Notes: a model not told the origin generated them from the letters alone. Counted from the first letter of the stretch, positions 801 to 54,704 are shown. The stretch: DNA of 61,333 bases from an uncultured Gammaproteobacteria bacterium (GCA_964392625.1 CAYMQG010000104.1:1-61333), one strand, 5' to 3'. Program-made: numbers and translations.

Positions 801-1927
801 GCACGGCGACGGCCGGACCGCCCGGCTTCGAGGAGGCCGTCAACCTGCGCCAGAAGGTGCGCGCCGCGGGCATGGACCCGGACTACTGGTACGCGGTCGA
901 GGAAGTGCGCAATATCAAGCCGGGATCCGTGGTCGAGGTGGTTTTCTGGAAGCGTTCGATCGCGCTGTTCCGGGCCGAGGACGGTTCGTTTCATGCCATG
1001 GACAACCGCTGCGCGCATCGCCAGCTCAAGCTTTCGCTTGGCCAGGTGGAGGGTTGCCGACTCGTGTGCGCCTACCACGGCTGGAAATACGACCCGGACG
1101 GGCAGCTTGCCGAGACCGCTCACGAGATGCTTGGGGGAAGCATGCCGAATGTCGCGCTCAGGACCTATCCGGTGAAGGTCCGCTACGGCCTGATCTGGCT
1201 GTTTCCCGGGAACCCGGAACTGGCCGACACGCGCCGCATTCCCGACATTCCCGAGTTGGAGGGCAAGGGCCGCTGGGCCTGCGTGCCGTTGAGCTTCACC
1301 TGGTCGGCGCACCACTCGATGGTGATCGACAACGTCAGCGATTTCACCCACGCCTGGCTGCACCGCCGCTACCGCCCGTTCGACGGCGCCGTGCTCACGC
1401 GCTGCGAAACGGTCGGCGACGACGTGCACGTGGCCTACGACACCAGCGTCGGACGCGGGCGTTTTTCCGGAATGTTCGTCGATCGTGAACGGATCGATAC
1501 CGATTCCATGAAGCTCTGCTATCAGTATCCCTATCAGTGGTCGAACACCGACGAGGCGATAAAACACTGGTGTTTCGTGCTGCCAGTCGACGAGCGCACC
1601 ACCCGGGCCTTCTTCCTGTTCTACTTCAAGTCCCTGAAGGTTCCGCTGCTGCCGATACGCTTCCCCCGGCTTGCAATGACCACGGTATTGAAGATATCCA
1701 ACCGTGTGCTGATCGGGCCGCTGCTTTCCCAGGATGGATTTGCGCTCGAAGCCGAACAGGAGGGTTACGAGCGGCACTGGGACGCGCGTCCGCTGGAATT
1801 CAATCCGGCGGTGCGGGCTTTTCAGAATGTCACGGTGCGCAAGTGGCAGGAGTACCTGGCCAGGGAGAACGGAACGGCAATGCCCGCGCCCGGATTGACG
1901 ACCGCGGACGGCGGCGCCGATGCCTGA
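797..1927 (+). CDS. Rieske [2Fe-2S] non-haem-iron oxygenase. By context it is SdmA-like (bacterial-type sterol C-4 methyl oxidase).
   Basis: Rieske motif CAHRQLKLSLG...CAYHGWKYD and an iron-site-like stretch IDNVSDFTHAWLH. ATG 797 overlaps the upstream stop. The gene sits between the SDR gene and the sterol reductase gene. Confidence 0.7.
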   Translation: MSTATAGPPGFEEAVNLRQKVRAAGMDPDYWYAVEEVRNIKPGSVVEVVFWKRSIALFRAEDGSFHAMDNRCAHRQLKLSLGQVEGCRLVCAYHGWKYDPDGQLAETAHEMLGGSMPNVALRTYPVKVRYGLIWLFPGNPELADTRRIPDIPELEGKGRWACVPLSFTWSAHHSMVIDNVSDFTHAWLHRRYRPFDGAVLTRCETVGDDVHVAYDTSVGRGRFSGMFVDRERIDTDSMKLCYQYPYQWSNTDEAIKHWCFVLPVDERTTRAFFLFYFKSLKVPLLPIRFPRLAMTTVLKISNRVLIGPLLSQDGFALEAEQEGYERHWDARPLEFNPAVRAFQNVTVRKWQEYLARENGTAMPAPGLTTADGGADA

Positions 1928-3017
1928 ACTGCCGTTGACCGCGTTTACGCTTGCGGGCGGCCCGCTACTGGAGGCCGCGGCAATGATCGCCGTGTTCATC
2001 GGCGCCCTGTTCCTCGGTTCGATGTTCCTGCCGGGACGCCGGATCAAGGGGCCGGACGTCGGCGGAAAGTCGACCACGTACAAGCTGAACGGTCTGGCGC
2101 TGTTGCTGCTCACCGCGCTTGCCGCCGGCGTTGCGCAAGTTTCGGGCGCGTTCTCCCTGTCGTCGCTTTACACGCACTTTTTCGCCCTCTTTGTGGCCGC
2201 GAACGTGTTCGCGTTCGCATTTTCCGGCTGGTTGTACTGGCGAGGCGCCCGCAAGAGCGCCGGATCGCCTGGATTCCTGCAGGGTTTCTTCTTCGGTGCG
2301 GAACTCAATCCGGCCCTGCTCGGGGTGGACCTCAAGATGTTCAGTTATCGGCCGTCCCTGATCGGGCTGGCGCTGTTCAACACGTCGTTCGCGGTGGTGC
2401 AATACGAGACCTACGGCCATCTGACCCTCGCGATGGGGCTGTACCAGGTCCTGACATGGGTCTATGTGCTCAATTACTTCCAGTTCGAAGGCGGCATGGT
2501 CCACACCTGGGACATCATCAGCGAGCGCTTCGGATGGATGCTGGTTTGGGGCGACTACGTGCTGGTGCCGTTTTTCTACTGCATCGTCGGCTGGTGGCTG
2601 GTTGACGCGTCGGGTCCTCCGCTGAGCCCTCTCGCCGCCGCCGCCATCCTGCTGCTCTATGCCTTCGGCTTCTGGATGTTCCGGGGCGCCAACGCGCAGA
2701 AGCACCGTTTCAAGCGCGATCCGTCCGCCACGATCTGGGGCCGGCCCGCCGAGTCCCTGGACGGGCGCCTGCTCGTGTCCGGATTCTGGGGCATCGGACG
2801 GCATCTCAACTACAGCGGCGAGATCTGCATCTACCTCGCGTTCGCGCTCACGACCGGTTTCGCGTCCTGGGCGCCGTTTCTGTTGCCGGCGTGGCTTGCG
2901 GGGCTGCTGTGGCACCGTTCGCGCCGCGATGACCGGCGCTGCCGCGCCAAGTACGGCGAACTGTGGGGGCGCTACAAGGAGAGGGTGCCGTATTCGATGG
3001 TCCCTTTCGTGTATTGA
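1920..3017 (+). CDS. Sterol reductase of the ERG4/ERG24 family (probable delta14-sterol reductase)
   Basis: Polytopic membrane protein ending ...GIGRHLNYSGEICIYLAFAL...WHRSRRDDRRCRAKYGELWGRYKERVPYSMVPFVY, the C-terminal ERG4/ERG24 signature. ATG 1920 overlaps the upstream stop (1925-1927). It lies immediately upstream of CYP51. Confidence 0.8.
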   Translation: MPELPLTAFTLAGGPLLEAAAMIAVFIGALFLGSMFLPGRRIKGPDVGGKSTTYKLNGLALLLLTALAAGVAQVSGAFSLSSLYTHFFALFVAANVFAFAFSGWLYWRGARKSAGSPGFLQGFFFGAELNPALLGVDLKMFSYRPSLIGLALFNTSFAVVQYETYGHLTLAMGLYQVLTWVYVLNYFQFEGGMVHTWDIISERFGWMLVWGDYVLVPFFYCIVGWWLVDASGPPLSPLAAAAILLLYAFGFWMFRGANAQKHRFKRDPSATIWGRPAESLDGRLLVSGFWGIGRHLNYSGEICIYLAFALTTGFASWAPFLLPAWLAGLLWHRSRRDDRRCRAKYGELWGRYKERVPYSMVPFVY

Positions 3018-3027
3018 GGAAGTAAGG

Positions 3028-4437
3028 GTGGCAAACCATACCGACAGTGCGGCCACCCTGCGTTCGGCGCGGCCCGCGGCGTCGCCGGGCCAGCCGATTC
3101 CCGAACTTTCCGGCGGTTGGCCGCTGCTGGGCCATCTGCCGGAGTTCCAGAAAGACCCGGTTGCGATGCTCGGCCGCTGCTGGCGCGAGCATGGCGAACT
3201 GGTCCGTTTCCGGCTGGGGACCCGCGAATTCGTGCTGTTTACCGGACCGGAAGCCCACGACTGCTACTTCCGGGCGCCCGAGGACCAGCTTGACGCCCGT
3301 GCCGTGTACCAGTTCACGGTGCCCATATTCGGGCGCGGCGTGGCCTACGACGTGGCCCCCGAGATCATGGCGGAGCAGTTGGGATTTCTGTATCCGGCGC
3401 TGCGCGATGCGTCCATGCGCAGGTACGCGCAAATCATGTACGAGGAAGCCGCCCGGTTTGCCGACGAGCTCGGAGAGGAAGGAACGCTCGACCTGCCGGC
3501 GGCGATGAACCGGCTTACGGTGAACATCGCCAGTCGCTGCCTGCTGGGTCAGGAGGTGCGGGATCAGGTGGATTCGGGGTTCGCCCAGGCGTACCACGAC
3601 CTCGAGGAGGGCATAAACCTGATCGGCTTCTTCCTGCCCAGGCTGCCGATCCCGGCGCATCGGCGTCGCGACCGCGCGCGCCGCAGGATAGCCGGGATTC
3701 TTGTCCGAATCATGGAAGGCCGGCGCGGTTCGGGGGCCGCGCCGGAAGATTTCATGCAGGCGCTGATGCAGGCCCGCTACAAGGACGGCCGGGCCCTGAG
3801 CGACGGCGAGGTGACCGGGATATTGCTGACGGTCCTGTTCGCCGGCCAGCACACCAGCGCGGTGCTCGCAAGCTGGATGGGTCTGGAGATGTTCCGCGAT
3901 CCCGCCTGCGTGGCGCGGATACGCGCCGAGATGCGCGAGGTCTACGGCGAGACGGGCGCAGTTAGCCTGGCCAGTCTCAAGCGCCAGATGGCGCTGGAAA
4001 GGACGGTGCGCGAATGCGAGCGGCTGCATCCGCCGCTCATACTGCTCATTCGCAAGGTGCTGAAACCGCTTCAATATGCGGGTTACACCGTGCCTGCCGG
4101 GGCCCTGGCCGTGGTGTCTCCGGCCGTCTCGCACCGCTTGCCTCACCTGTTCGCCCAACCGCAGCGATTCGATCCCGAGCGGTTTGCACCGCCGCGCAGC
4201 GAGAACAAGCAGCACCTCTACACGCTGATCGGATTCGGCGGGGGCAAGCACCGTTGCATGGGGGAGAAATTCGCCATGCTGCAACTGAAGGCGATCTGGA
4301 CGGTGTTGCTCGATCGCTTCGATTTCGATCCCGTTACGGAGTTTCCCGCGCCGAACTACGGCAGCTGGGTGACAGGTCCCACGGCGCCGTGCCGGGTCCG
4401 CTACCGCCGCCGCCCGCAAGCGGGCTTATTCAGTTGA
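3028..4437 (+). CDS. cyp51: Cytochrome P450 sterol 14alpha-demethylase (CYP51), stand-alone haem domain
   Basis: CYP51 B'-helix signature YQFTVPIFGRGVAYD, I-helix AGQHTS, and haem-Cys loop FGGGKHRCMGEKFA. I placed the start at GTG 3028, 10 nt after the upstream stop and preceded by GGAAG. The 2659-3027 part of the listed ORF overlaps the reductase gene. Confidence 0.85.
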   Translation: MANHTDSAATLRSARPAASPGQPIPELSGGWPLLGHLPEFQKDPVAMLGRCWREHGELVRFRLGTREFVLFTGPEAHDCYFRAPEDQLDARAVYQFTVPIFGRGVAYDVAPEIMAEQLGFLYPALRDASMRRYAQIMYEEAARFADELGEEGTLDLPAAMNRLTVNIASRCLLGQEVRDQVDSGFAQAYHDLEEGINLIGFFLPRLPIPAHRRRDRARRRIAGILVRIMEGRRGSGAAPEDFMQALMQARYKDGRALSDGEVTGILLTVLFAGQHTSAVLASWMGLEMFRDPACVARIRAEMREVYGETGAVSLASLKRQMALERTVRECERLHPPLILLIRKVLKPLQYAGYTVPAGALAVVSPAVSHRLPHLFAQPQRFDPERFAPPRSENKQHLYTLIGFGGGKHRCMGEKFAMLQLKAIWTVLLDRFDFDPVTEFPAPNYGSWVTGPTAPCRVRYRRRPQAGLFS

Positions 4438-7400
4438 GCGCCGCCCCTCCGCGTTACGACGTAATCATCGTTGGTGCGGGGCCTGTAGGCAGCTATTGCG
4501 CCCTCGCCCACGCCCGCAAGGGCGCGCGCGTGGCGCTGCTCGAGGCGAACCCCAGGGCGGCCACGCGGCTGGCCGGCGAGTGGCTGCATCCGCTGGCCGT
4601 GCGCATGTTGCGCGATGCCGGCATTCGTCTCGATCCGCCGCTGCGCAGCACCGAGGGCCAGGGCTTCGTGGTGTTTCCGGAGGACGGTTCGGAGCCGATC
4701 GTGCTCCCGTACCCCGGCGGCGGACGGGGGATCGCCTGCGACCATGAGATTCTCGTGGCGCGTCTGCATGAAGCCGTCCGCAAAGAGCCGGGCATCGACT
4801 TTCTTGTCAATGCGCGGGTAAGGCAGGTCGAAGACGATGGCGTGGTCTTTATCCGCGGCGGCTCCAGCGAACGTCTCGCCGCGGACAGAATTGTCGGTGC
4901 CGACGGCCGGTCCTCGGCCGTGCGACGGTCTTTGGGTCTGCCGATGCGCCGCAAGGCCTGCTCGCGGATGGTGGGCGTGACCCTTGAAGGCGTGAGCCTG
5001 CGGCCGGCCGGTTACGGAAACGTAATACTTGGCGGCCCGGGTCCGATTCTCGGATATCCGCTGGGCGAGCACTGCGTGAGGATCGTTGTCGATGTGCCGC
5101 TCGAGCAGTGGACCTCCAGCGACAGGACCGGCCTGCTGGCCGAGTCCTATGCTCGGGTCCTGCCGGAAGAATTGCGGCCCGCTTATCTCTCTGCGCTGAA
5201 GTCGGGCAAATTCCACGCGGCGGCCAATGAACTCAGGCCGCGCATCTCGTACGGCACGTCGAGGCGGGTGCTGATCGGCGATGCGGCCGGACACTACCAT
5301 CCGATGACGGCAGTGGGCATGACACTCGGTTTCGGCGACGCCGCCGCACTGGCGGAAGGCGGGAGCTTCAGGAATTTCGCCGCCAGGCGATTCGGGGCGA
5401 CCCACGCCCCGGAGTTGCTTGCCATGGGGCTTTACGAGGTCTTTGCCGATCATCGACTCGAAGCGGCGGCGCTCCGGCGCGCGATCTACCGAAACTGGCG
5501 GGCGCATGGCGTCGTTCGCGACCGGACCATGCGGCTGCTCGCCTGTGAAGAAACCTCGATGACCCACCTTGTGCTCGCAACGCTCGCTACGGTGATCCGG
5601 GCGATTGCTGGAGTGGTTCGTTCATCGTTCAGACAGTCGGCCTGGCGGCGCGCCCGCTACATCGTTTTCCCGATCGTTACCCGTGCCCGCTGGTTCATGC
5701 GTGGAATTCGCAAGCTGAAGGAGGCCAGGAACGGAGGCGGCGGTCAGGACCGGCAGGCCCGCAGGGCGTTGTCGCGCGCGCTTCTCGCTTCCATGTCCTC
5801 GAACAACGGCCGAGCCGGCGCCACGCGCACGGGCGAATCCGCGTCGCCCGATGCGCAACCGGCATTGCGCAGGGCTGCGGCGCGGCTGCTGGATCTCCAG
5901 GGGAAGGACGGCGCCTGGGAAGGCGAGATGGTCTGGTGCCCCATGCTCACCGCGCAGTACGTGTTGCTGCAGCACATTCTCGGTGAGCCGATGGACTCCG
6001 GCCGGCGGCGGCGCATCCTGCGCTCTTTCGAGTGCACCCGCCTGTCGGGCGGAGCGTGGGGAATGCATGAGCACTCGCCGCCCCACCTGTTCGTCACCGT
6101 GCTGGTTTATGTCGCCTCAAGACTGCTGGGCGTCGACCGTGAAGATCCGCTCATCGGACCGGCCCGCCGTTTCCTTGCCGAAGAGGACGTGCTCGCGATC
6201 CCCAGTTGGGGGAAATTCTGGCTGGCGCTGCTCAATCTGTATGACTGGCGAGGGGTTAACGCAATTCTTCCGGAACTGTGGGCTCTGCCGCGCGGGTTGC
6301 CGTTGCATCCGTCGAACTGGTACTGCCATACGCGGCTCATCTACATGGCGATGGCGTCCATCTACGCCCGCCGCTCCCACGCGCCGGTCACGCCCGTGAT
6401 CGAATTCCTGCGCGAGGAGTTGTTTGGCGACGAGTTTGACCGCCTCGATTTTTCCTCGGCCCGCAACCGCCTGCGCGATGCCGACCTGTTTGCCCGCCCA
6501 AGCCTGTGGCTGCGCGCCGGATACGGGCTGGCGCGCGTATATGAGCGCTTCCACGGCAAGCGCCTGCGCGCCCGCTGCCTTGAGAAGCTGATCCGGCAGA
6601 TCCAATGGGAGTTGCAGACCACCAGCCACACGAGCATCTCGCCGGTCAGCGGATTTCTTAACATCCTGGCCTTGTGGCTGCACGATCCGGACGATGCCGA
6701 CTGCCGCGCCGCACTCGACAAGCTTGACGGCTGGTTCTGGGAGGACGAGGAGCTCGGCGCGCGCGTCACCGGAGCGAGAAGCAGCACCTGGGATACCGCC
6801 TTCTCCGTGCAGGCGCTGGCGGCCGCGCCCGGGTCCGGTGCAATCGGAGACGCCGTCCGCAAGGGCGCCGGTTTCCTGCGCTCGCAGCAGATCCGCAACA
6901 GCTTCGAGGGGTTTCGCGAGGCCTACCGGTCCGACCCGAAGGGTGGCTGGTGCTTTCCCGGCGGCTGGCATGGCTGGCCGGTCAGCGACTGCACCGCCGA
7001 AGCCGTACTGGGGATTCTCGCCGCCGGCAGCGAAGCCGCCGACGAGGCGGCGCTGACCGAGGCGGTCCGGTTCATGCTGCGCAGCCAGAACCGCGACGGC
7101 GGTTTCGGCAGCTATGAAGCGCGGCGCACGAGGATCGGTCTGGAGTGGCTGAACCCCGCCGAGATGTTCGGCGAATCGATGACCGAGAATTCCTACGTCG
7201 AATGCACGGCGTCGTGCCTCGAGGCGCTGGCCGCTTGCCGACGCGGGTTCCCGCAGGTGCTGGGCCCGTCGGCGGTAGGTGCCATCTCCAAAGGCGCCGC
7301 CTGGCTGCGCAAGACCCAGGGGCGCGACGGCTCATGGCGCGGCGTATGGGGCGTTCAGTTCATCTACGGCACCCTGTTCGGCATAAGGGGGCTGGTTGCC

Positions 7401-7841
7401 GCCGGGGCCGGACCGAGCGATCCGGCGCTGCGCCTGGCCTGCCGCTGGCTGCTCGACCGGCAGCGCGAGGACGGAGGATGGGGCGAACACCATAGCGGCT
7501 GCCTGACGGGCCGCTACGTTCCGCATGAGGAAAGCCAGGTCATTCAGACCGCCTGGGCCCTGCTCGCGCTGCTGGAGGCGGAGGAGTCCAACTGGACCGC
7601 CATAGCGCGCGGCGCGCGGTTCCTGCTCAACTCCCAGGAGGCGGACGGCGGCTGGCCGAAACAGGACATGGCCGGCGTCTTCTTCCGCACGGCGCTGCTG
7701 GACTACGTCCTCTACCGGCAGTATTTCCCGCTGCGCGCGCTGGGCCTCTACGAGCAACGCCGCCGGACCCGGCTCGAACTGACCGCCGCTTCGAAGGAGA
7801 AGGAGCCGGACGTGGTCCGGACCAGGCCGCGAGCCGCCTGA
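4434..7841 (+). CDS. Fused squalene monooxygenase (ERG1-type, N-terminal ~400 aa) and oxidosqualene cyclase (C-terminal ~680 aa), 1135 codons
   Basis: One frame runs from TTG 4434 (TTGA overlap with the cyp51 stop) to TGA 7841 with no stop. The N-terminal part has DVIIVGAGPVGSYCALAHARKGARVALLE and LIGDAAGHYHPMTAVGMTLGFGDA. The C-terminal part has the OSC catalytic motif WPVSDCTAE and QW repeats (RSQNRDGGFGSYE, KTQGRDGSWRGVWG, DRQREDGGWGEH, NSQEADGGWP). Confidence 0.8.
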   Translation: MSAAPPRYDVIIVGAGPVGSYCALAHARKGARVALLEANPRAATRLAGEWLHPLAVRMLRDAGIRLDPPLRSTEGQGFVVFPEDGSEPIVLPYPGGGRGIACDHEILVARLHEAVRKEPGIDFLVNARVRQVEDDGVVFIRGGSSERLAADRIVGADGRSSAVRRSLGLPMRRKACSRMVGVTLEGVSLRPAGYGNVILGGPGPILGYPLGEHCVRIVVDVPLEQWTSSDRTGLLAESYARVLPEELRPAYLSALKSGKFHAAANELRPRISYGTSRRVLIGDAAGHYHPMTAVGMTLGFGDAAALAEGGSFRNFAARRFGATHAPELLAMGLYEVFADHRLEAAALRRAIYRNWRAHGVVRDRTMRLLACEETSMTHLVLATLATVIRAIAGVVRSSFRQSAWRRARYIVFPIVTRARWFMRGIRKLKEARNGGGGQDRQARRALSRALLASMSSNNGRAGATRTGESASPDAQPALRRAAARLLDLQGKDGAWEGEMVWCPMLTAQYVLLQHILGEPMDSGRRRRILRSFECTRLSGGAWGMHEHSPPHLFVTVLVYVASRLLGVDREDPLIGPARRFLAEEDVLAIPSWGKFWLALLNLYDWRGVNAILPELWALPRGLPLHPSNWYCHTRLIYMAMASIYARRSHAPVTPVIEFLREELFGDEFDRLDFSSARNRLRDADLFARPSLWLRAGYGLARVYERFHGKRLRARCLEKLIRQIQWELQTTSHTSISPVSGFLNILALWLHDPDDADCRAALDKLDGWFWEDEELGARVTGARSSTWDTAFSVQALAAAPGSGAIGDAVRKGAGFLRSQQIRNSFEGFREAYRSDPKGGWCFPGGWHGWPVSDCTAEAVLGILAAGSEAADEAALTEAVRFMLRSQNRDGGFGSYEARRTRIGLEWLNPAEMFGESMTENSYVECTASCLEALAACRRGFPQVLGPSAVGAISKGAAWLRKTQGRDGSWRGVWGVQFIYGTLFGIRGLVAAGAGPSDPALRLACRWLLDRQREDGGWGEHHSGCLTGRYVPHEESQVIQTAWALLALLEAEESNWTAIARGARFLLNSQEADGGWPKQDMAGVFFRTALLDYVLYRQYFPLRALGLYEQRRRTRLELTAASKEKEPDVVRTRPRAA

Positions 7842-7843
7842 CG

Positions 7844-8863
7844 TCAGTCTCGCCGGGACAGCGGTTTCCGGGCCAGGAAAAAGAACATCGGCGTGAAGAT
7901 CCCGGTGCGGCCGCCTTCAACGAGCGTGTCCGCCCCCCAGTTCAGGAACGAGCTGACCTCCCTGGCGCCTTGCGGAGCGAGCCGCAACCCCTCGGCAACC
8001 CACAGGATCAGATTGGTCAGGGCGCGGCCCAGGGGCGAGCGCGGGATACTCGCCAGACTGAAATCCCGGCCCTGCAGGGCCCGGTACCAAGGCGTTTCCG
8101 GATCCGATTCGGGCGCAAGGTCCCGGGCTTCAAGCAACTCGAATCCGGCCGCGCGCACTGCTTCGCACACCTCCGTAATGCTGGCGATGTCGGGTAGCCC
8201 CGATCCCGTCATGATTCCTTCCTTGACTCGCATGTGTTCCGTGTTCGAAGGATCGAATACGTCGGTGAGACACCAGTCGTAGCACGCGAAACCGGCCCCG
8301 GGACGCAAAACACGGAAGATTTCGCTGTAGGCGGCGGTCTTGTCCGGCGCGTGGGGCATCGCTTCGATGCTGATGGCGCCATCGTAGTGGTCGTCGCTCC
8401 GGGGAATCTTCATGTAGTCGCTCTTGATGAAACGGCACAGCGCCTCGACGTCCCGGGTGTGCACTTTCGCGCGCTCGATCTGGTAGGCGTTGTTGTTGAC
8501 GCCGACAAAACTCGCGCCGCAATAGCGGGCAAGATTGCCCGCGGGGCCGCCCACACCGCATCCCGCGTCGAGAATCTGCATTCCCGGTCTCAGCGACAGC
8601 TTGTCGGCCAGGAAATGCTGGTGCCGGATCTGCGATGCCTTGAAACTCTCGCCCCGCCGCCGCGGAGCAAAGTGGAAGCTGGTACCCCAACCCCACTCGT
8701 AGAAATCGGTTACGAGGTCGTAGTAATGATTGACGAGCTGCCGGTAATGCTCCTTCTTGCTTTCAATACCGGCATCGTGGAGCCCGACGTAGTCATCGAC
8801 CACCGACTTCACTTCCTCCTGGGTCAGATTACCCAGGGAACGATTGGCTACTTTCGTATCCAC
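7844..8863 (-). CDS. Sterol 24-C-methyltransferase (ERG6/SMT family)
   Basis: Carries YYDLVTDFYEWGWGTSFHF (SMT region I), the SAM motif ILDAGCGVGGPAGNLA, and IEAMPHAPDKTAAYSEIFRVLRPGAGFACYDW. GTG start at 8863 with a GGAGG 7 nt upstream. Its stop lies 2 nt from the cyclase stop. Confidence 0.85.
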   Translation of the reverse strand: MDTKVANRSLGNLTQEEVKSVVDDYVGLHDAGIESKKEHYRQLVNHYYDLVTDFYEWGWGTSFHFAPRRRGESFKASQIRHQHFLADKLSLRPGMQILDAGCGVGGPAGNLARYCGASFVGVNNNAYQIERAKVHTRDVEALCRFIKSDYMKIPRSDDHYDGAISIEAMPHAPDKTAAYSEIFRVLRPGAGFACYDWCLTDVFDPSNTEHMRVKEGIMTGSGLPDIASITEVCEAVRAAGFELLEARDLAPESDPETPWYRALQGRDFSLASIPRSPLGRALTNLILWVAEGLRLAPQGAREVSSFLNWGADTLVEGGRTGIFTPMFFFLARKPLSRRD

Positions 8864-8984
8864 CCCCGCGCCTCCGGATGTGCCGGCAGGAAACCAGCGC
8901 GATTGTATCCTGCCTGCGCTCGTTGCATCGCATGGCGCGCGTTAGAATGCGCCCGCCGCCACAGTGGACGTAGCGAGGGGGCAC

Positions 8985-9719
8985 ATGTCCGAAAGCCGCG
9001 CCAGTCTGCCGCCATCCGAACCAGGCCGGGGAAGCAGAGGCCCGACGGTTCCGGTGGCGCTGGTCGTCGCTCTGACGATCGCCGCCGGCACGCTTCTCGG
9101 TATCCTGGTGCGCCTGCAGACCGGCGGGCAACTGAATTTCCTCCACTCCCTGTTCTGCCTGTTCTTTTCGGTCAATCTACTGATCTGCTACTGGGAGATC
9201 TGCCTGTTCTTCCTTCGCGACCGGATCGGGACGCGAGCCGAGTACTGGCGCGAATTGCAGGGCAGGACGGGAAGGTCGCCCGCCCACGGTTTCTTTGCCA
9301 CGAGGATCGGGCTGACGCAGGTCCTGTCGCCGTCCGTGTGGGCCGATGCCTGGGCGGCCTACTGTTATTACGACGACTCGTATGCGGACCGCCGCACCTT
9401 CGGCTTCAACGTGGACATCGCCAACGGTTTCGTGACGCCCGTTCCGACACTGGTCCTGTATGCCGCATTCACGGTGGGCTACCCGTCCGCTCGCATCGCC
9501 GGGATTATCGGGCTGATGATGTCCTGGCAGTGGGTTTACATGACATCGACCTACCTGGTCAGCTTTTTCGTTGCGCGGCGTCAAACCCTGCTGAGCCGGC
9601 GCGACGTGTACATCTACATCGTGGCGATCAATTCCTTCTGGATTCTGTGCGCGCTGCTGGGCGGGTACGTTTCCGTCGCCCTCATCGTCAACGGCGACTA
9701 CCGCGTGCTGGGTTTGTAA
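8985..9719 (+). CDS. EXPERA-domain / emopamil-binding-protein (EBP)-like polytopic membrane protein; candidate sterol delta8-delta7 isomerase
   Basis: About 5 hydrophobic helices. WAAYCYYDDSY matches the EBP pattern W-x2-Y-x3-D-x2-Y (human WKEYAKGDSRY). There is a Glu in TM2 (CYWEICLFF, compare VIEGWF). ATG 8985 is preceded by GAGGGGG. An alternative GTG start exists at 8964. Confidence 0.5.
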   Translation: MSESRASLPPSEPGRGSRGPTVPVALVVALTIAAGTLLGILVRLQTGGQLNFLHSLFCLFFSVNLLICYWEICLFFLRDRIGTRAEYWRELQGRTGRSPAHGFFATRIGLTQVLSPSVWADAWAAYCYYDDSYADRRTFGFNVDIANGFVTPVPTLVLYAAFTVGYPSARIAGIIGLMMSWQWVYMTSTYLVSFFVARRQTLLSRRDVYIYIVAINSFWILCALLGGYVSVALIVNGDYRVLGL

Positions 9720-9758
9720 TATCGGGGTTTTCCGACAGCAAACGATCAAGGAATCCGA

Positions 9759-10358
9759 ATGACCGCACAACGAATCGCGGAAATACAAAAGCAGATTTTT
9801 GAACTGACCGGGGAACTCGGGACGCTCCTGAAGCAAAGCCGCGGCGCCGAGGTGCCCGACTACCGCTTCGCCGGCGGGTCGGGCGAGGTGAGCCTGCTTG
9901 AACTCTTCGCCGGCAGGGACACGCTGCTGGCGATTCACAACATGGGCCAGGGGTGTCGTTACTGCACCGTCTGGGCCGATGGCTTCAACGGCTTTCTTCC
10001 GCACCTGGAAAACGCGATGTCGGTAGTGCTGCTGTCGAAGGACCCGCCGGAACTGCAGCGGCGGTTCGCCAACGAGCGCGGCTGGCGCTTCCGGCTCGCC
10101 TCGCACGGCGGCGGCGCCTATATCCGCGAGCAGACGGTCGTGGAAGGCCAGGACAATTACCCGGGCGCCGTCGTTTACAAGCGCGAAGGGGACAAGGTTC
10201 TTCGCTTCAACGCCTGCGTTTTCGGACCCGGCGACCTCTACTGCTCGCTCTGGAGCCTCCTCGCGCTGGCCGGCATGGGCGCGCAGGACTGGACCCCGCA
10301 GTATTCCTACTGGCGGCGCCCGGAAGTGCTCGACGATGGCGGAGAAAACGTCTACTAA
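9759..10358 (+). CDS. DUF899-type thioredoxin-fold protein
   Basis: Reads LLAIHNMGQGCRYCTVWADGFNGFLPHLEN, the C-x-x-C-containing core typical of DUF899 proteins. An AAGGAA RBS precedes ATG 9759. Confidence 0.55.
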   Translation: MTAQRIAEIQKQIFELTGELGTLLKQSRGAEVPDYRFAGGSGEVSLLELFAGRDTLLAIHNMGQGCRYCTVWADGFNGFLPHLENAMSVVLLSKDPPELQRRFANERGWRFRLASHGGGAYIREQTVVEGQDNYPGAVVYKREGDKVLRFNACVFGPGDLYCSLWSLLALAGMGAQDWTPQYSYWRRPEVLDDGGENVY

Positions 10359-10400
10359 TCGCGCGCGTTCGTCACATCGGCACTCGCTTGTCCGAATGCA

Positions 10401-10420
10401 AGCATATTGATAGCATATTG
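10401..10420 (+). promoter_or_regulatory. Tandem direct repeat AGCATATTG-AT-AGCATATTG upstream of vapB; candidate antitoxin operator and promoter
   Basis: A perfect 9-nt repeat with an 11-nt period, 22 nt upstream of the vapB ATG. RHH antitoxins typically bind tandem repeats overlapping their own promoter. Confidence 0.4.
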
Positions 10421-10441
10421 CTGTCAATTCGGAGATCTGTA

Positions 10442-10678
10442 ATGGGCACGCTAACGATTCGCAACCTGGACGATGGAGTAATTGAGAAATTGAAGGCGCA
10501 GGCGAAGGCCAATCACCGCTCCCTCGAAGGAGAAATCCGCCATGCATTGACACAACGCGCGGACCCTCTCGGGCGCATCGCGGAGTTTCGCGATCGCACG
10601 CGTAATCTTCAGGCGCTTACCGCGGATCGCAAACAGACCGACAGTGTCGAACTGCTTCGCGAGGATCGGGAGCGTTGA
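10442..10678 (+). CDS. vapB: Ribbon-helix-helix antitoxin (VapB/FitA-like)
   Basis: 78 aa, MGTLTIRNLDDGVIEKLKAQAKANHRSLEGEIRHAL, an Arc/MetJ-type RHH N-terminus. GGAGA RBS. The stop overlaps the PIN gene start (TTGA). Confidence 0.8.
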   Translation: MGTLTIRNLDDGVIEKLKAQAKANHRSLEGEIRHALTQRADPLGRIAEFRDRTRNLQALTADRKQTDSVELLREDRER

Positions 10679-11133
10679 GAGTCACCATCGATGCTAGCAT
10701 TGTCGTCAAGTGGTTTGTCGTGGAATCTTTTTCTCAAGAATCACGGCTGCTGCTGGCGCGGGACTTGGAACTTCAAGCTCCGGATCTATTGATACCGGAA
10801 TTCGCCAATACGATCTGGAAGAAAGCCAGACGGCGTGAAATCGCTGACCCGGAGCCGTTCCTCAATGAATTGCACAGCCTGTCCGAACTGATTGAGTTGT
10901 ATCCTGCTGAAGCGCTCATCGAACGGGCATCGCAACTGGCCTTCGAAATCGACCATCCCGTTTACGACTGCCTCTATCTTGCGTGCGCCGAAGTCTCCGG
11001 CACACCTTTGGTAACGGCCGACAAGCGCTTGGTGGCCAGGGCAGATGAGAGTCAATCAGGCCTTGAGGTTCGCAACATTGGCGTCCCCGCCACTGCACGC
11101 TGGATCAAGGACGCGCGTGCTGCGTCAGGCTAG
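10675..11133 (+). CDS. vapC: PIN-domain toxin (VapC family)
   Basis: 152 aa with VTIDASIVVKW..., ...HPVYDCLYLACAE..., PLVTADKRL, giving the acidic PIN residues. It is translationally coupled to the antitoxin. The GC content is visibly lower than in the flanking DNA. Confidence 0.8.
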   Translation: MRVTIDASIVVKWFVVESFSQESRLLLARDLELQAPDLLIPEFANTIWKKARRREIADPEPFLNELHSLSELIELYPAEALIERASQLAFEIDHPVYDCLYLACAEVSGTPLVTADKRLVARADESQSGLEVRNIGVPATARWIKDARAASG

Positions 11134-15230: not shown

Positions 15231-16367
15231 CTAATCGTCGCGGGGGAAAGTCGTAGGCACAACCGGGTGGACCCAGTTCTTCGGGTCCTTGCGGCGGGCC
15301 GGCGAGGGGATGGAAAAATGCCGGTAGCGCCCTTCGTGCTCCAGTTTTTCGACATCGATTTCCCAGCCCTGCTTCACTTTCTCGAACAGCACTTTCCGGA
15401 ACGCCGTTTCGAGCTGGTCGGATTCGACCAGCAGCTGGTGCGCCATGGAACGCGGCACGAATTTCGGCTCCACCGAGGCGACCGCCTCATAGTCTTCGCG
15501 GAAGGCCAGCCGGATGCCGTCGAGACGCGCCTCGTCGTGCTCTTCTTCCATCAGGTAGTTGCGCGCCTGGTGCATGAAGATCCGGGTGTTGTAGGGATCG
15601 ATGGGGGTTCGGGCGGACACGGTTACCTGCCGGACATTGCCCTCGCGAGTAATGTCAATCCGGTGCGAAATGCCCGCCAGGTAGGAGTCGGTGGATGCAA
15701 CAGTCTTGCCCCTTTTCCTGGATACCAGCTTGGCGATGTCGGCACTGACCTGTGTGTGCTTGGGCGGAACCCGTTCACGCGTGGCGTTATGGCCCCCGAA
15801 GGCGTTCGCGACCAGCGGAACGATCTGCACTTTCGGCGCGCTGCGCCGGCCGAACCGGGAATGCACGAAGGCCGGGTGCGCGCTGTCGAGCGAGTTCTCG
15901 TGACCGCGGGCCCAGTTCACGTCGGCGTCGAACTCGATCGAGACTACCCGCCAGTTTTCCTTGTCTTGGTATTCGGGGAAATCGGTTGCCGGGATCGCGG
16001 GACGCTCCTCCTCCTCCAGGTCGCCCAGGAAAACCCAGACCCAGTCGAAATGCTCTTCGACGGGATACGAGTCCACCCGCGCGCGCCTGGGGATGTTGGT
16101 ATCTTTTCCAAGCGCGGGAATCTCGACGCACTGGCCCTGCGCATTGAATTTCCAGCCGTGGTAGCCGCAGGCAATACATCCGGCGCCGTCCAGTTCACCC
16201 CGGCCAATGGAACCGCCGCGATGGCAGCAGGTGTTGGTCAGACAGACGGCCTTGTCTTCCGGAGTTCGGAAGAGCACGAAATTCTGGCCTAACATACGCA
16301 CGATCAATGGCTTCTCGGCATTCACCTCCTGGCTTTTTGCCGCCACGTACCAGTTGTTCATCAACAT
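15231..16367 (-). CDS. Rieske non-haem-iron oxygenase, VanA/phthalate-family alpha subunit-like (paralog of 33527..34669)
   Basis: N-terminus MLMNNWYVAAKSQEV, Rieske motif CCHRGGSIG...CGYHGWKF, and iron site ENSLDSAHPAFVH. An alternative upstream ATG exists at 16391. Confidence 0.8.
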   Translation of the reverse strand: MLMNNWYVAAKSQEVNAEKPLIVRMLGQNFVLFRTPEDKAVCLTNTCCHRGGSIGRGELDGAGCIACGYHGWKFNAQGQCVEIPALGKDTNIPRRARVDSYPVEEHFDWVWVFLGDLEEEERPAIPATDFPEYQDKENWRVVSIEFDADVNWARGHENSLDSAHPAFVHSRFGRRSAPKVQIVPLVANAFGGHNATRERVPPKHTQVSADIAKLVSRKRGKTVASTDSYLAGISHRIDITREGNVRQVTVSARTPIDPYNTRIFMHQARNYLMEEEHDEARLDGIRLAFREDYEAVASVEPKFVPRSMAHQLLVESDQLETAFRKVLFEKVKQGWEIDVEKLEHEGRYRHFSIPSPARRKDPKNWVHPVVPTTFPRDD

Positions 16368-16462
16368 GCTCGTCCCCCATTTGTCCGACATACAACCATT
16401 CGGTTCGACGGTCGGGCGCGGATGTGATCGTTCATTTTAGCTTTCCCCGCTGAACCCGAAAG

Positions 16463-17926
16463 ATGCTGCGTACCGGCAAGAAATTCCTGGCTGGGTTGAA
16501 GGATGGGCGCAAGGTCTATATCGGCGGCGAGGAGGTGGAAGACGTTGTCGAACACCCGGCCTTCAGCGGCGCTGCGCGAACGCTGGCCGGGCTGTTCGAC
16601 TACAAGGCCGACCCCGCCAACGGCGAGCCGATGGCGTTCGAGGAGGAGGGCGAGAAATTCTCGTCCTATTTCCTAAAGCCACGAACCCGCGAAGACCTGG
16701 TCAAGCGCTCGCAGGCGCATTACGCGATCGCCGAACGGACATACGGCCTTTTCGGCCGAAGTCCCGATCACGTCGCCAGTTTTGTGACGGGCCTGGCGAT
16801 GAACCCGGAAATACTGGACCGGGACGGCGATTCCTACTCGGGCCATATCACCGACTACTACGAGCACCTCAGAAGGAACGACCTGTATGCCTCGTATGCC
16901 GTGCATCCGGCCCCCCAGTCCAAGAACGAAAACATCTTCGGCGACACCAAGGGCTACCAGGCCGTGCTGCAGGTCGTCGACGAGGACGACAACGGCGTCA
17001 TCCTGAACGGAATGAAGATGCTGGCCACGGCCGGTGTGTTCTGCGATGAAGTCTGGATCGGAAACCTGACGCCGATTTCCGATGACAAGAAAAAGGAAGC
17101 CATAACCTGCGCCGTGCCGATGAATGCCGCGGGGTTGACCCTCTGGGTTCGCAAGCCCATGGAGCTGTATGCGGCCACGGAGTTCGACAGTCCCCTGGCG
17201 TCGAATTTCGACGAAAGCGACGTGATGCTGATCTTCGATAACGTGCGGGTGCCCTGGGAGCGCGTTTTCGTTCACGACCGCGCGGCGCTCTCGCGGGAGA
17301 TTTATGTCCAGACCGCCTCGCACACGCTCGGCAATCACCAGTCCAATGTGCGCTTCCATGCAAAACTGCGGTTCATCGCCGGAATCATCCACAAGATCAC
17401 GCAATCCGCCGGGGTGGACGGTATTCCCGTCGTGGCGGAAAAACTCGGAAGACTGGCAGCGTGGGAAGCGGCCCTGGGCGGGATGATCCAGGGCCAGATA
17501 CAGGACTGCGAAGATCTCGGCAACGGCTATTTGAATTTCAATCGGCGCTACATGTATGCGGCGCTCAACTGGTGCCAGGAGCACTACCCCGGGATCATCG
17601 CGATGATGCGGGAACTGTCCGGCGGCAGCGTGTTCCAGATGCCCGCCGACATCTCGGTTCTGGAAAACCCGGCGACACGCGATATCTTCCGGGACTACTG
17701 GGCGTCCGGAAACGAAACCGCGGTGGAGCGCGTCAAGCTGTACCGCCTGGCCTGGGACATGTACGGCAGCGAATTCGGGTCGCGCCAGCAGCAATACGAG
17801 AACTTTTTCGCCGGGCCGTCCTTCATCGTGCGCAACCACAGTTTCCGGGAGGCGCCCTGGAGCGCCTTTGGCGCGGTCGTGAACGGCCTGCTGGACAGCA
17901 TCCCGCTGCCCGGGGAGTCCGAATAA
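16463..17926 (+). CDS. 4-hydroxyphenylacetate 3-monooxygenase oxygenase-component family (HpaB-like, group D flavin monooxygenase)
   Basis: 487 aa, MLRTGKKFLAGLKDGRKVYIGGEEVEDVVEHPAFSGAARTLAGLFD. The N-terminus and length are typical of HpaB. Confidence 0.7.
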   Translation: MLRTGKKFLAGLKDGRKVYIGGEEVEDVVEHPAFSGAARTLAGLFDYKADPANGEPMAFEEEGEKFSSYFLKPRTREDLVKRSQAHYAIAERTYGLFGRSPDHVASFVTGLAMNPEILDRDGDSYSGHITDYYEHLRRNDLYASYAVHPAPQSKNENIFGDTKGYQAVLQVVDEDDNGVILNGMKMLATAGVFCDEVWIGNLTPISDDKKKEAITCAVPMNAAGLTLWVRKPMELYAATEFDSPLASNFDESDVMLIFDNVRVPWERVFVHDRAALSREIYVQTASHTLGNHQSNVRFHAKLRFIAGIIHKITQSAGVDGIPVVAEKLGRLAAWEAALGGMIQGQIQDCEDLGNGYLNFNRRYMYAALNWCQEHYPGIIAMMRELSGGSVFQMPADISVLENPATRDIFRDYWASGNETAVERVKLYRLAWDMYGSEFGSRQQQYENFFAGPSFIVRNHSFREAPWSAFGAVVNGLLDSIPLPGESE

Positions 17927-17939
17927 ACAGGAAACTTGC

Positions 17940-19139
17940 TTGGCGGACGTCGATCGAGTCCTGATCGCAGGCGCCGGTCCCGTCGGGCTGAGTTGCGCCC
18001 TGTTCCTGACCCGCAGCGGCATACCGGTTTCGGTATTCGAGGCCGAGAGCGAGCTGCCCGAAGACATGCGCGCATCGACTTTTCATCCGGCCACGCTGGA
18101 TGTGCTCGATGACCCCGAAATCGTCGGGGATTTGCTCGCGGATGGCGTCAAGTGCAGGCAGTGGCAGTACCGCAATCACGAAACGGGCGAATGCGCCGTG
18201 TTCGACATGGACGTCCTGCGGGGCCGGACCTCTCACCCCTACAGGCTGCAATGCGAACAGTTCCGGCTGACCCGGGCGATCTGCTCGAGGCTCGGAGACA
18301 ACAGTCTGTTCAATCTCGAGTTCGGGGTCCGCGTGACCCATGCCGGGCAGAACGAAGACGGCGTCGACGTCAAGGTGGAAGCGCCGGACGGGCCGCGAAC
18401 GGTCCCCGGCAGCTTTATCATCGGCGCGGACGGCGCGGGGAGTCGGATCCGCAAGGCCATGGGCCTGGACTTCAAGGGCGAGACGTATCCGGTCACGTCA
18501 CTGACGGTTGCGGTTCGCTATCCCTTCGACAGGCATATCGAAGGCCTGTTGCCGGTCAATTACTGCTGGACCGAAGACAGTCACTTCAGCATGATGCAGC
18601 TGAAGGACGTCTGGCGGGTCGGTTTTGCGCCCAAACCGGGGCAGTCGCATCAGCAAGCGTTGCAGCCGGATCAGATCCAGGCCCGGCTGCAGGAAATCCA
18701 CCCGAAAGAGGGTCCATACGAGATCGCTCACACAGGCGCCTACACCATTCACCGGCGGATCGCAGACAGTTTCCGCGCAGGGCGCATGGTCTTGGCGGGC
18801 GATGCCGCGCATCTGAACAGTCCTTCGGGCGGCATGGGCATGAACAGCGGCATTCACGACGCGCGCAACCTTTGCGACAAGCTGGGCGCGATCATCCTCG
18901 AGGGCGCGGACGAATCGTTGCTGGACCGTTATTCGCGGCAGCGCCGTTCAATCGCCCTCGATGAGGTGCAGGTCAGGTCCGACCGGAATTACCGGCGCCA
19001 CAGGGTGAAGGGCAAGAGGGAAAGAGCCGAAGTCTGGGACGAGCTACGGCGCGTGACGGGCGACCGCCGCCTGATGACCGACTTCCTGATGGAAAGCTCG
19101 ATGCTGCGGTCGCTTGAGAAGGCAGAGCGGATCGAGTAG
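17940..19139 (+). CDS. FAD-dependent aromatic-hydroxylase-type monooxygenase (group A)
   Basis: Carries VLIAGAGPVGLSCALFLTRSGIPVSVFE and LAGDAAHLNSPSGGMGMNSGIHDARNL. TTG start. Confidence 0.75.
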   Translation: MADVDRVLIAGAGPVGLSCALFLTRSGIPVSVFEAESELPEDMRASTFHPATLDVLDDPEIVGDLLADGVKCRQWQYRNHETGECAVFDMDVLRGRTSHPYRLQCEQFRLTRAICSRLGDNSLFNLEFGVRVTHAGQNEDGVDVKVEAPDGPRTVPGSFIIGADGAGSRIRKAMGLDFKGETYPVTSLTVAVRYPFDRHIEGLLPVNYCWTEDSHFSMMQLKDVWRVGFAPKPGQSHQQALQPDQIQARLQEIHPKEGPYEIAHTGAYTIHRRIADSFRAGRMVLAGDAAHLNSPSGGMGMNSGIHDARNLCDKLGAIILEGADESLLDRYSRQRRSIALDEVQVRSDRNYRRHRVKGKRERAEVWDELRRVTGDRRLMTDFLMESSMLRSLEKAERIE

Positions 19140-23241: not shown

Positions 23242-24441
23242 ATGTCAATAGCCGGGCATGACCCGGTCCTGGTGGCCGGCGCCGGGCCCGTAGGGCTGGT
23301 TGCCGCGCTGCTGCTCGCCAGGGCAGGCGTGCGTGTGAGGGTCTTCGAGAAGCGCGAGTCTCTCAGCCGCGCGTCCAGGGCCTCGACCTTTCATCCGCCC
23401 ACGCTGGCCATACTGGACGAACTCGGCGTGGCGGACACGGCGATTGGCGCCGGCAGGGTCGTACGGGAGATTCAATATCTGGACGGCGCCCATAAGGTGC
23501 TGGCCCGGTTCGACATGGCGGACCTTGCGACGGAGACGCCCTTTCCCTTTCGCCTGCACTATGAACAGGGGGAGCTCACGCGGGACATCGTCGGGGCTCT
23601 TGAGCGGTTGCCGAACGCCGAAATCACGTTCCGGGCGGAGGTCATCGGCGCGGAGACGGCCGGCTCGCAGGTCGCCGCCGACATCCGGTGCCCTGCAGGG
23701 CGGCAGAAGGTCATCGGGTCATGGCTGTTTGCAGCGGACGGCGCACGCAGCGCCGTGCGGGAAAGCCTCGGGATTGAATTCGACGAACGGCCCTACGGAA
23801 CGCACGTGCTTCGCGTCATGACACGCCAGGACCTGGACACCGTGGTTCGCGGAATAGCGCCGCTCAGTTACATCTTCAATGACGAGGGGTCCTGCAGCCT
23901 GCTCGAGATGCCCGATTGCTGGCGCATCATCCTCAGGGTTCCTGCGGGGACACCGCAGCGACTGGCGCTCGACATGGACTGGCTCAGGGAACGGCTCGGC
24001 AGGTTCTTTGCCCCGTCCGACCTTCGCGAACCGGATTTCGTTTCGACCGACATCTTCGCGGTAAGCAGGGCCATTGCCGGCGAAAACCGCGCGGGCCGGA
24101 TCTTTCTGGTCGGCGACGCCGCGCACCTGACCAATACGCGCGGCGGCATGAACATGAACTGCGGAATTCATGACGCCTATGCGATCGCCGGCGCCCTGAT
24201 CGACACGCTGAAGGGCGGCCCCGAGAGTATGCTTGGGCGGCCCGCCGAGGAGCGGCATGAAATTGCGCGAAACGAACTTATTCCACGCACCGATCATAGG
24301 GTCGCCAGGGCCAATGACTGGCTTCGCGAAGTACGCGACTGCGCCGGCGATCCGATGAGGGCTCGGGAATTTCTCCGGTCCGCATCGATGCTGGACATCG
24401 CCCCGCGCGTGAAGCCGCGTCGGGAAAGCCTTGCCGGCTGA
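23242..24441 (+). CDS. FAD-dependent aromatic-hydroxylase-type monooxygenase (paralog of 17940..19139)
   Basis: Carries VLVAGAGPVGLVAALLLARAGVRVRVFE and LVGDAAHLTNTRGGMNMNCGIHDAYAI. Confidence 0.75.
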   Translation: MSIAGHDPVLVAGAGPVGLVAALLLARAGVRVRVFEKRESLSRASRASTFHPPTLAILDELGVADTAIGAGRVVREIQYLDGAHKVLARFDMADLATETPFPFRLHYEQGELTRDIVGALERLPNAEITFRAEVIGAETAGSQVAADIRCPAGRQKVIGSWLFAADGARSAVRESLGIEFDERPYGTHVLRVMTRQDLDTVVRGIAPLSYIFNDEGSCSLLEMPDCWRIILRVPAGTPQRLALDMDWLRERLGRFFAPSDLREPDFVSTDIFAVSRAIAGENRAGRIFLVGDAAHLTNTRGGMNMNCGIHDAYAIAGALIDTLKGGPESMLGRPAEERHEIARNELIPRTDHRVARANDWLREVRDCAGDPMRAREFLRSASMLDIAPRVKPRRESLAG

Positions 24442-49449: not shown

Positions 49450-49505
49450 TATTTTACAAATAATTATCATTCAAATAATTTGCTATTCTAACTATTGTGT
49501 ATTAT
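49450..49505. promoter_or_regulatory. AT-rich divergent promoter region between the sulfatase and TBDR genes, containing the direct repeat CAAATAATT-N6-CAAATAATT (49457-49480)
   Basis: A sharp GC drop in otherwise GC-rich DNA. The 9-nt repeat is perfect. The resemblance to a Fur box is weak (about 11/19 in the best register). Confidence 0.4.
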
Positions 49506-54528: not shown

Positions 54529-54704
54529 CTCGAAAGCTCCTGGATCATGCAAGGCCGTGGTGAAGCGTAATCTTTTTTTCGTCGCTCCGGCAGCGCCTGC
54601 GCCGTATGCGATAATGATTTCGGAAACAATAATTGTATTGAAGAATGATTGAAAATACCAACCACTTGGCGTAATCTCGCTGGCCGGCAACAGCAATCCA
54701 GAGC

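Follow-up and report, generated by a model that had tools for sequence, protein, structure and literature searches.

A predicted sterol C-24 methyltransferase and a candidate EBP-like isomerase at the end of a bacterial sterol gene cluster in an uncultured gammaproteobacterium

Steranes with alkylated side chains (ergostane, stigmastane, and 24-isopropylcholestane) are taken as biomarkers of eukaryotes, algae, or sponges, and a gene for a sterol C-24 methyltransferase (SMT) next to a bacterial cyclase gene raises the question of whether a bacterium makes 24-alkyl sterols by itself and how far it would extend the side chain. We examined this question on a contig of 61,333 nucleotides from an uncultured Gammaproteobacteria bacterium (GCA_964392625.1, CAYMQG010000104.1:1–61333). 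The whole stretch is called the window below, and the putative SMT gene lies at positions 7844–8863. We conclude, with a probability of about three in four and on the evidence of sequence, that this gene encodes a functional S-adenosylmethionine (SAM)-dependent sterol C-24 methyltransferase, which would tailor the side chain in the pathway of a bacterial sterol cluster that is horizontally mobile. We computed directly the family to which the SMT belongs, its residues at key positions, the order of the genes, and the synteny across related loci; we infer the activity, substrate order, and products of the SMT as well as the isomerase role of its neighbour.

A single open reading frame (ORF) on the minus strand filled positions 7844–8863 exactly, with a GTG start and a stop codon within the span, and encoded 339 amino acids (aa). 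The GC content at the third and second codon positions (GC3 0.77, GC2 0.46) was coding-like against the 64% GC of the window. All motifs quoted in the initial annotation were present in the translation: YEWGWGTSFHF at aa 55–65, LDAGCGVGGP at aa 98–107, IEAMPHAP at aa 166–173, and YSEIFRVLRPGAGFACYDW at aa 179–197. The protein contained both the Region I sterol-binding pattern (YExGWGxxFHF) and the Region II SAM pattern (DxGxGxxGP). The Pfam domain Sterol_MT_C (PF08498) was found at residues 276–334 (E = 2e-22, 79.5 bits, gathering cut-off 21.7) and was preceded by a class I SAM methyltransferase domain. These motifs are not chance matches, because Sterol_MT_C scored well over the cut-off beside class I methyltransferase domains.

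Comparison with yeast ERG6 by BLASTP gave 260 bits (E = 4e-89) and 41% identity over 330 aa, that is, over the full length. The numbering of the ERG6 query matched every position quoted by Brown & Welander. When aligned to ERG6, the window SMT was identical at 25 of the 25 residues that are shared by every SMT active in vitro (Brown & Welander 2025). Like Saccharomyces cerevisiae ERG6, it possesses regions I–IV, the Sterol_MT_C domain, and all 25 conserved residues; it differs in an N-terminus that is approximately 40 aa shorter, in W83 for Y83 and S249 for D249, and in its bacterial genomic context. The best solved non-sterol methyltransferases scored at most 69 bits against the window SMT and matched the Rossmann core only. 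Among the models of NCBIfam, none of which describes SMTs, the best non-sterol ones scored at most 55 bits. A search of a protein collection returned more than 4,400 homologues. The C-terminal domain, the 25 conserved residues, and the full-length similarity to ERG6, together with the conserved synteny described below, support the assignment of the protein as an ERG6-type sterol C-24 methyltransferase. A promoter and terminator scan of positions 7700–9100 found no sites. A second class I SAM methyltransferase of 375 aa is encoded at 31979–33106 on the plus strand (Methyltransf_25/11); it has no Sterol_MT_C domain and is not a paralogue of the SMT.

The cyclase next to the SMT gene proved to be one half of a fusion. 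A single ORF on the plus strand (4434–7841) encoded an N-terminal squalene epoxidase and a C-terminal oxidosqualene cyclase (OSC), with the Pfam domains SE, FAD_binding_3, SQHop_cyclase_N, and SQHop_cyclase_C. The likely start was TTG at 4434, which overlaps the stop codon of the preceding gene (TTGA), with GTG at 4389 as an alternative. The fusion matched the NCBIfam 2,3-oxidosqualene cyclase model TIGR03463 with 741 bits. The cyclase half contained the catalytic DCTAE motif and resembled human lanosterol synthase (1W6K, E = 2e-130) far more than hopene cyclase (4e-51). The residues at human OSC positions 381, 449, and 453 were A, H, and V. The canonical sets at these positions are Thr/Cys-or-Gln/Val in lanosterol synthases and Tyr/His/Ile in cycloartenol synthases, and the Val of the window cyclase favours a lanosterol-type product. 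The SMT and fusion genes are convergent and tail-to-tail, with 2 bp between their stop codons, so that the SMT gene runs on the other strand and falls outside the core operon.

The four genes in front of the fusion, all on the plus strand, were also assigned to sterol biosynthesis. CYP51 sterol 14-alpha-demethylase was encoded at 3028–4437 (Pfam p450); the top PDB matches were all CYP51, led by 7jj1 and 6mcw (E = 6e-112), and the likely start was GTG 3028 with GAGGAAG ahead of it. A delta-14 sterol reductase of the ERG24/TM7SF2 type was encoded at 1920–3017 (Pfam ERG4_ERG24, E = 1e-72), with the delta(14)-sterol reductase 4QUV as its best PDB match (E = 9.5e-65). We also asked whether it might be an 8,14-sterol reductase that was described recently and rejected this assignment, since that enzyme has an NTF2 fold and is unrelated. 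The gene at 797–1927 encoded SdmA, a Rieske-type 4-methylsterol monooxygenase (Pfam Rieske and VanA_C), which matched the NCBIfam model NF052579 (4beta-methylsterol monooxygenase) with E = 2e-121 and 405 bits, a score under the 600-bit equivalog cut-off. The first gene, at 3–800, encoded the 3' part of SdmB, an NAD(P)-dependent sterol C-4 demethylation reductase (NCBIfam NF052578, sterol demethylase protein SdmB, E = 1e-37). Because only positions 154–328 of the 328 profile positions were matched, the contig begins inside sdmB; frame 3 was open from base 3, and more of the sterol cluster may lie beyond the left end of the window. The ORF at 96–800 had been considered as an unknown conserved cluster gene with no Pfam match; this candidate was rejected after the NCBIfam match, position 96 being merely the first in-frame ATG of the 5'-truncated sdmB. 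The encoded protein was 62–93% identical to the product of the first cluster gene of related loci.

The start of sdmA overlaps the stop of sdmB (ATGA), the reductase gene overlaps the stop of sdmA by 8 nt, and the fusion gene overlaps the stop of the CYP51 gene. Because successive starts and stops overlap or abut in this way, the arrangement indicates that sdmB, sdmA, erg24, cyp51, and the fusion gene form one operon. The initial annotation had described a complete upstream pathway; this holds for squalene epoxidation through C-4 demethylation, but the window contains no squalene synthase gene and sdmB is cut by the contig end.

We then looked for the same arrangement in other genomes. A scan of one genome per GTDB species gave 80 related SMT loci, all of them from metagenome-assembled genomes (MAGs), and 21 kb of each locus was searched by tblastn with the window proteins. 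Their SMTs were 56–90% identical to that of the window, or 63–90% when the most distant locus (L081) was excluded. The taxa were Gammaproteobacteria, Nitrospirales, Alphaproteobacteria, Vicinamibacterales, Dehalococcoidia, Rhodothermales, Gemmatimonadota, Binatia, Ca. Poriferihabitaceae, and Ca. Porisulfidus. An OSC gene was located within 10 kb of the SMT gene in 56 of the 80 loci, mostly together with sdmB, sdmA, ERG24, and CYP51, and no cyclase was located within that distance in 24. The cyclase gene adjoined the SMT gene in 39 loci, and 32 of these 39 had the tail-to-tail layout of the window, which was the commonest. This conserved synteny with the cyclase, CYP51, the C-14 reductase, and sdmAB agrees with the earlier proposal that the SMT is linked to bacterial sterol-core genes, which would imply de novo synthesis of 24-alkyl sterols.

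The closest genome record was OZ220729.1, with an SMT 90% identical to that of the window, and the 90%-identity cluster of the window SMT contained 66 sequences named "MAG: Gammaproteobacteria bacterium". The bin labels of the related loci (SB, IRC, RHO, COS) are of the kind used for sponge metagenomes; going by these labels and the names of the relatives, the carrier bacterium may be associated with sponges. A gammaproteobacterial MAG of 5.9 Mb (L001/L007, OY761822.1, locus positions 4376–11026) carried an SMT 78% identical to that of the window with no cyclase within 10 kb. Near this SMT gene we found a gene for a 517-aa FAD_binding_4 protein, which in size and domain resembles the DHCR24-type sterol delta-24 reductases. 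Genes for a fatty-acid-desaturase-family protein and a reverse transcriptase, together with a type I restriction-modification system and an integrase, were also nearby, and the surroundings look like a mobile-element context.

The window cluster and its enzyme family have already been described and biochemically sampled, and the window is another gammaproteobacterial copy. The novelty implied by the initial annotation therefore does not stand: the same cluster, with the SMT gene on the opposite strand, has been published (PMC7074536, PMC9531527, PMC10070321). Mohanty et al. 2020 (PMC7074536) reported the msbA-F locus (GenBank MT026193.1) from a gamma-proteobacterium living in symbiosis with the sponge Melophlus sarasinorum. 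As in the window, it encodes an NAD(P) oxidoreductase overlapping a Rieske oxygenase, a membrane sterol reductase, a C-14 (C30) demethylase, a bifunctional squalene epoxidase/cyclase, and a SAM-dependent SMT; squalene synthase is encoded elsewhere, and the symbiont belongs to the same bacterial class. The argument from Val for a lanosterol-type product was likewise used for MsbE (PMC7074536). "Clusters of steroid genes" (CSGs) were found in 115 of 537 MAGs from Ircinia sponges, across 10 phyla including Gammaproteobacteria, with evidence of horizontal gene transfer and of purifying selection on the core genes (Kelly et al. 2022, PMC9531527). Their core is ERG24-CYP51-LSS/ERG7, preceded at the 5' end by "DFR" (sdmB of the window) and a hypothetical protein (sdmA of the window), and either SMT1/ERG6 or FDFT1 occupies the opposite strand at the 3' end, the SMT being placed as in the window. 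That paper gives no annotation of sdmA and sdmB, of the epoxidase half of the fusion, or of the EBP-like gene discussed below. The window thus has the gene content and order of the msb locus and the CSGs, namely sdmB-sdmA-ERG24-CYP51-(ERG1/ERG7 fusion) with the SMT gene on the opposite strand at the 3' end, and our scan of genome representatives reproduced the phylum distribution of the CSGs.

Brown et al. 2023 (PMC10070321) described clusters from Aplysina aerophoba (JGIcombinedJ30088_10000835) and from a Chromatiales MAG of Theonella swinhoei. Their architecture is identical to that of the window, with SMT, fused ERG1/ERG7 (one gene ID), ERG11, ERG24, sdmA, and sdmB, although there are two SMT copies in the A. 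aerophoba cluster, against a single one in the window. Their SMTs are approximately 41–42% identical to ERG6, like the window SMT. SMTs from such clusters methylated desmosterol and/or 24-methylenecholesterol in vitro, and three of them build the 24-isopropyl side chain (PMC10070321). In the supplements of that paper, the window motifs, the protein accessions, and the word "Gammaproteobacteria" were not found.

The msb locus also gives rise to another explanation, in which the cluster builds the scaffold of a triterpenoid natural product (a norlanostane saponin similar to the sarasinosides) and the methyltransferase tailors that scaffold instead of making 24-alkyl sterols for membranes. It was proposed that the sarasinoside sterol core comes from the msbA-F genes and that the SMT msbF accounts for the methylated congeners (PMC7074536), and the approximately 74% identity of the msb locus to the Ircinia clusters (Kelly et al., PMC9531527) counts for this explanation. 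However, we found neither glycosyltransferase nor sugar-nucleotide genes around the window cluster, the link to sarasinosides was put forward only as a hypothesis, MAGs of many phyla carry this cluster, and homologous SMTs methylate C-24 in vitro (PMC10070321). We consider a saponin scaffold unlikely as the product of this cluster, and we retain the reading of the gene as the sterol C-24 methyltransferase of a sterol pathway.

In this pathway, the fused epoxidase-cyclase would turn squalene made elsewhere in the genome into a lanosterol-type protosterol by epoxidation and cyclisation. CYP51 would take off the C-14 methyl group, the ERG24-type reductase would saturate the delta-14 bond, and SdmA and SdmB would demethylate C-4. 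The SMT would move the methyl group of SAM onto C-24 of a delta-24 side chain to give 24-methyl(ene) C28 and possibly 24-ethyl(idene) C29 sterols, and the EBP-like neighbour would probably move the nuclear double bond from delta-8 to delta-7.

In regards to the number of carbons added, the initial annotation stated that one, two, or three carbons could not be distinguished from the sequence. The key residues of the window SMT in ERG6 numbering were Y81, W83, E243, and S249 (Tyr55, Trp57, and Ser221 for positions 81, 83, and 249). Gly at position 249 is necessary, and not sufficient, for the third methylation; the G249S/A/N/T mutants of Chl_SMT from Chlamydiae kept C28 and C29 formation and lost C30, and Phe at 81 or 83 raises the C30 yield (Brown & Welander, bioRxiv 10.64898/2025.12.19.695621). 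The propylating SMTs of A. aerophoba and Chlamydiae have Gly249 with Phe at 81 and/or 83, whereas the window SMT has Ser249, Tyr81, and Trp83, that is, Ser in place of Gly at 249 and no Phe at 81 or 83. On account of S249, Y81, and W83 and the mutagenesis of other enzymes, the window SMT would be expected to give C28 and possibly C29 products, and 24-isopropyl (C30) products are argued against. The statement on carbon number can therefore be narrowed with respect to the third methylation, while C29 is only possible.

The Y81/W83/S249 signature was common to the gammaproteobacterial clade of the window and occurred in 8 of 93 aligned SMTs, the window SMT included; most cluster-linked SMTs had Y/F at 81/83 with D or N at 249. 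An unusual regiochemistry of the Y81/W83/S249 clade is unlikely. Gly249 was found in 4 of the 93 sequences. One of them is the cluster-linked SMT of Nitrospira sp. bin75 (L012 positions 10001–10999; MPMZ01000005.1), which has Phe81, Phe83, and Gly249; this was the sole F/F/G combination among the aligned SMTs and is the full set linked to 24-isopropyl formation. Two loci (L035, 1195–4336; L048, 8696–12102) had three tandem SMT-like genes beside the cyclase operon, and one tandem SMT-like gene had Gly249 (Y/Y/A/G at 81/83/243/249). This arrangement suggests a division of labour among the tandem paralogues.

A further explanation is that the window protein belongs to the SMT family and either has no activity or methylates another position or substrate, for example C-26 or C-28 only. 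Approximately one third of the tested metagenomic SMT homologues were inactive on the two standard substrates, and the enzymes of C-26 methylation are still unknown (PMC10070321); the Y81/W83/S249 combination is also uncommon among the aligned SMTs. On the other hand, the window protein retains all of the functional-SMT residues, purifying selection acts on the core genes of the cluster (Kelly et al., PMC9531527), and the SMT is 63–90% identical across MAGs. We regard this explanation as very unlikely. Several points nevertheless weigh against the view that the gene is a functional SMT of a sterol pathway with the products given above. Of the SMT homologues tested by Brown and co-workers, 11 showed no activity on desmosterol and 24-methylenecholesterol; since 4 of these 11 kept every conserved residue, conservation is no guarantee of activity on those substrates. 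The rule for residue 249 was drawn from mutants of two enzymes in a preprint (bioRxiv 10.64898/2025.12.19.695621). No squalene synthase was found among the genes of the window. Finally, the A/H/V set of the cyclase matches neither the canonical lanosterol synthase set nor the cycloartenol synthase set.

The gene on the other side of the SMT gene was examined as a possible further member of the pathway. It lies at 8985–9719 on the plus strand, divergent from the SMT gene, with GTG 8964 as an alternative start, and encodes a multi-helix membrane protein of 244 aa that was annotated as hypothetical. The protein had no match in Pfam, EBP (PF05241) included, or in NCBIfam. Its family contained 434 sequences at 90% clustering, all annotated as hypothetical, and 332 representatives at 50% clustering in a library of 1.84 billion proteins. 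An AlphaFold2 model built with 30 homologues had a pLDDT of 87 and a pTM of 0.82. In a Foldseek search of this model against the PDB, human EBP was found with probabilities of 1.00 (8w0r_A) and 0.99 (6oht_A) and TM-scores of 0.51–0.59, whereas every non-EBP chain gave a TM-score of at most 0.26. Human EBP (delta-8/delta-7 isomerase; 6OHT, 8W0R) was thus the only solved fold that matched; the window protein is approximately 15% identical to it and has an extra N-terminal helix.

Comparison by hhalign of the diverse family alignment (A2) with human EBP gave E = 8.7e-5 and a probability of 60% over 104 columns; the shallow alignment (A1) gave E = 0.084, which is not significant, and the family profile gave only a chance match against PDB sequences. 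Weak Pfam EBP/EXPERA (PF05241) matches were obtained for 4 of 30 and 4 of 57 relatives, with a best E value of 0.0029. In the human EBP sequence that was used, the catalytic residues H76, E80, E122, N193, and W196 stood at the correct positions. The hhalign alignment paired W123, Y126, D130, and Y133 of the window protein with the WKEYxxGDSRY loop motif of EBP, and paired D144 with E122, N216 with N193, and W219 with W196, these residues being invariant or near-invariant in the family. The near-invariant E71 of helix 2 may correspond to E80 of EBP. A counterpart of His76 was not found in the family alignment.

In the related loci, the EBP-like gene was located within 10 kb of the SMT gene in 39 of 80 and directly beside it in 23 of 80, and it was present in 12 loci that had no nearby cyclase. 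The modelled fold and the profile alignment make the protein a candidate sterol isomerase and a diverged member of the EXPERA superfamily. It is possible, though doubtful, that it founds a highly diverged bacterial EBP/EXPERA family of sterol nuclear double-bond isomerases (delta-8 to delta-7 or related) that is co-inherited with the SMT. The protein may also be related to the plant cyclopropyl sterol isomerase (CPI1), for which we know of no solved structure. The fungal C-8 isomerase acts straight after ERG6. Characterised bacterial sterol pathways invoke ERG2-type C-8 isomerisation, and Kelly et al. 2022 (PMC9531527) reported ERG2 in some clusters and mentioned no EBP-like gene. In the cluster papers cited here, the EBP-like gene is unmentioned or dismissed as unrelated to sterol biosynthesis; compared with the msb locus, the flanking hypothetical gene of the window has an EBP-like fold.

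The distribution of the EBP-like gene bears on whether the SMT acts on the products of the adjacent cyclase at all, since the SMT and the EBP-like protein could mainly remodel the sterols of a eukaryotic host. The 24 loci with no cyclase within 10 kb, 12 of which still have the EBP-like gene, count for this explanation, as does the position of the SMT gene outside the core operon on the other strand; modification of host sterols was raised by Brown et al. for a Chlamydiae SMT that has no other sterol genes (PMC10070321). However, the SMT gene of the window is 2 bp from the cyclase gene, which is the commonest arrangement (32 tail-to-tail), and the loci with no cyclase were judged on 21 kb each, so that a cyclase elsewhere in those genomes is possible. 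Remodelling of host sterols and methylation of the bacterium's own sterols are, moreover, not mutually exclusive. We consider it improbable that host sterols are the main substrates, and we prefer the reading in which the SMT methylates the sterols of its own cluster.

To the right of the EBP-like gene, a DUF899/thioredoxin-like gene (9759–10358, plus strand) follows directly and was kept only in the closest relative examined (L003), and a gene for a PIN-domain (VapC-like) toxin (10675–11133, plus strand) stands at the right border of the cluster. The remaining approximately 50 kb of the window contained no further sterol genes. It is ordinary Gram-negative DNA, with genes for TonB-dependent receptors, Opp-type ABC and TRAP transporters, a sulfatase, an arylsulfotransferase, aromatic-ring oxygenases, a MarR regulator, and the PIN toxin. 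A eukaryotic origin of the contig was rejected on the basis of the TonB-dependent receptors, the Opp-type ABC/TRAP transporters, the MarR regulator, and the overlapping operon genes.

Two more Rieske/VanA-type oxygenases are encoded on the minus strand at 15231–16391, with a weak KshA_C match (E = 3.8e-5), and at 33527–34669, and HpaB-type and FAD-dependent hydroxylases are among the products of the plus-strand genes at 16463–17926, 17940–19139, and 23242–24441. These oxygenases and hydroxylases are only approximately 25–30% identical to SdmA, and their genes look like those of aromatic or possibly steroid-ring catabolism. The sulfatase (48019–49470, minus strand) and arylsulfotransferase (53122–54717, minus strand) genes are located beside those of TonB-dependent receptors, a content that would suit a host-associated life on sulfated glycans.

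Where a full sterol-core pathway is linked to a bacterial SMT, side-chain-alkylated steranes become less secure as eukaryote, algal, or sponge biomarkers, a point that has been made and tested experimentally since 2020–2023. What is left as new in the window is its EBP-like neighbour and the predicted products of the Y81/W83/S249 clade. Modestly useful are the sequence-based prediction that this clade stops at C28/C29, the assignment by name of sdmA and sdmB and of the epoxidase half of the fusion, and the candidate EBP-like isomerase, whose gene accompanies that of the SMT even where no cyclase operon is nearby. If its predicted role is true, the EBP-like isomerase would add a step after cyclisation and would bring the sterols of the symbionts nearer to "eukaryote-like" 24-alkyl sterols.

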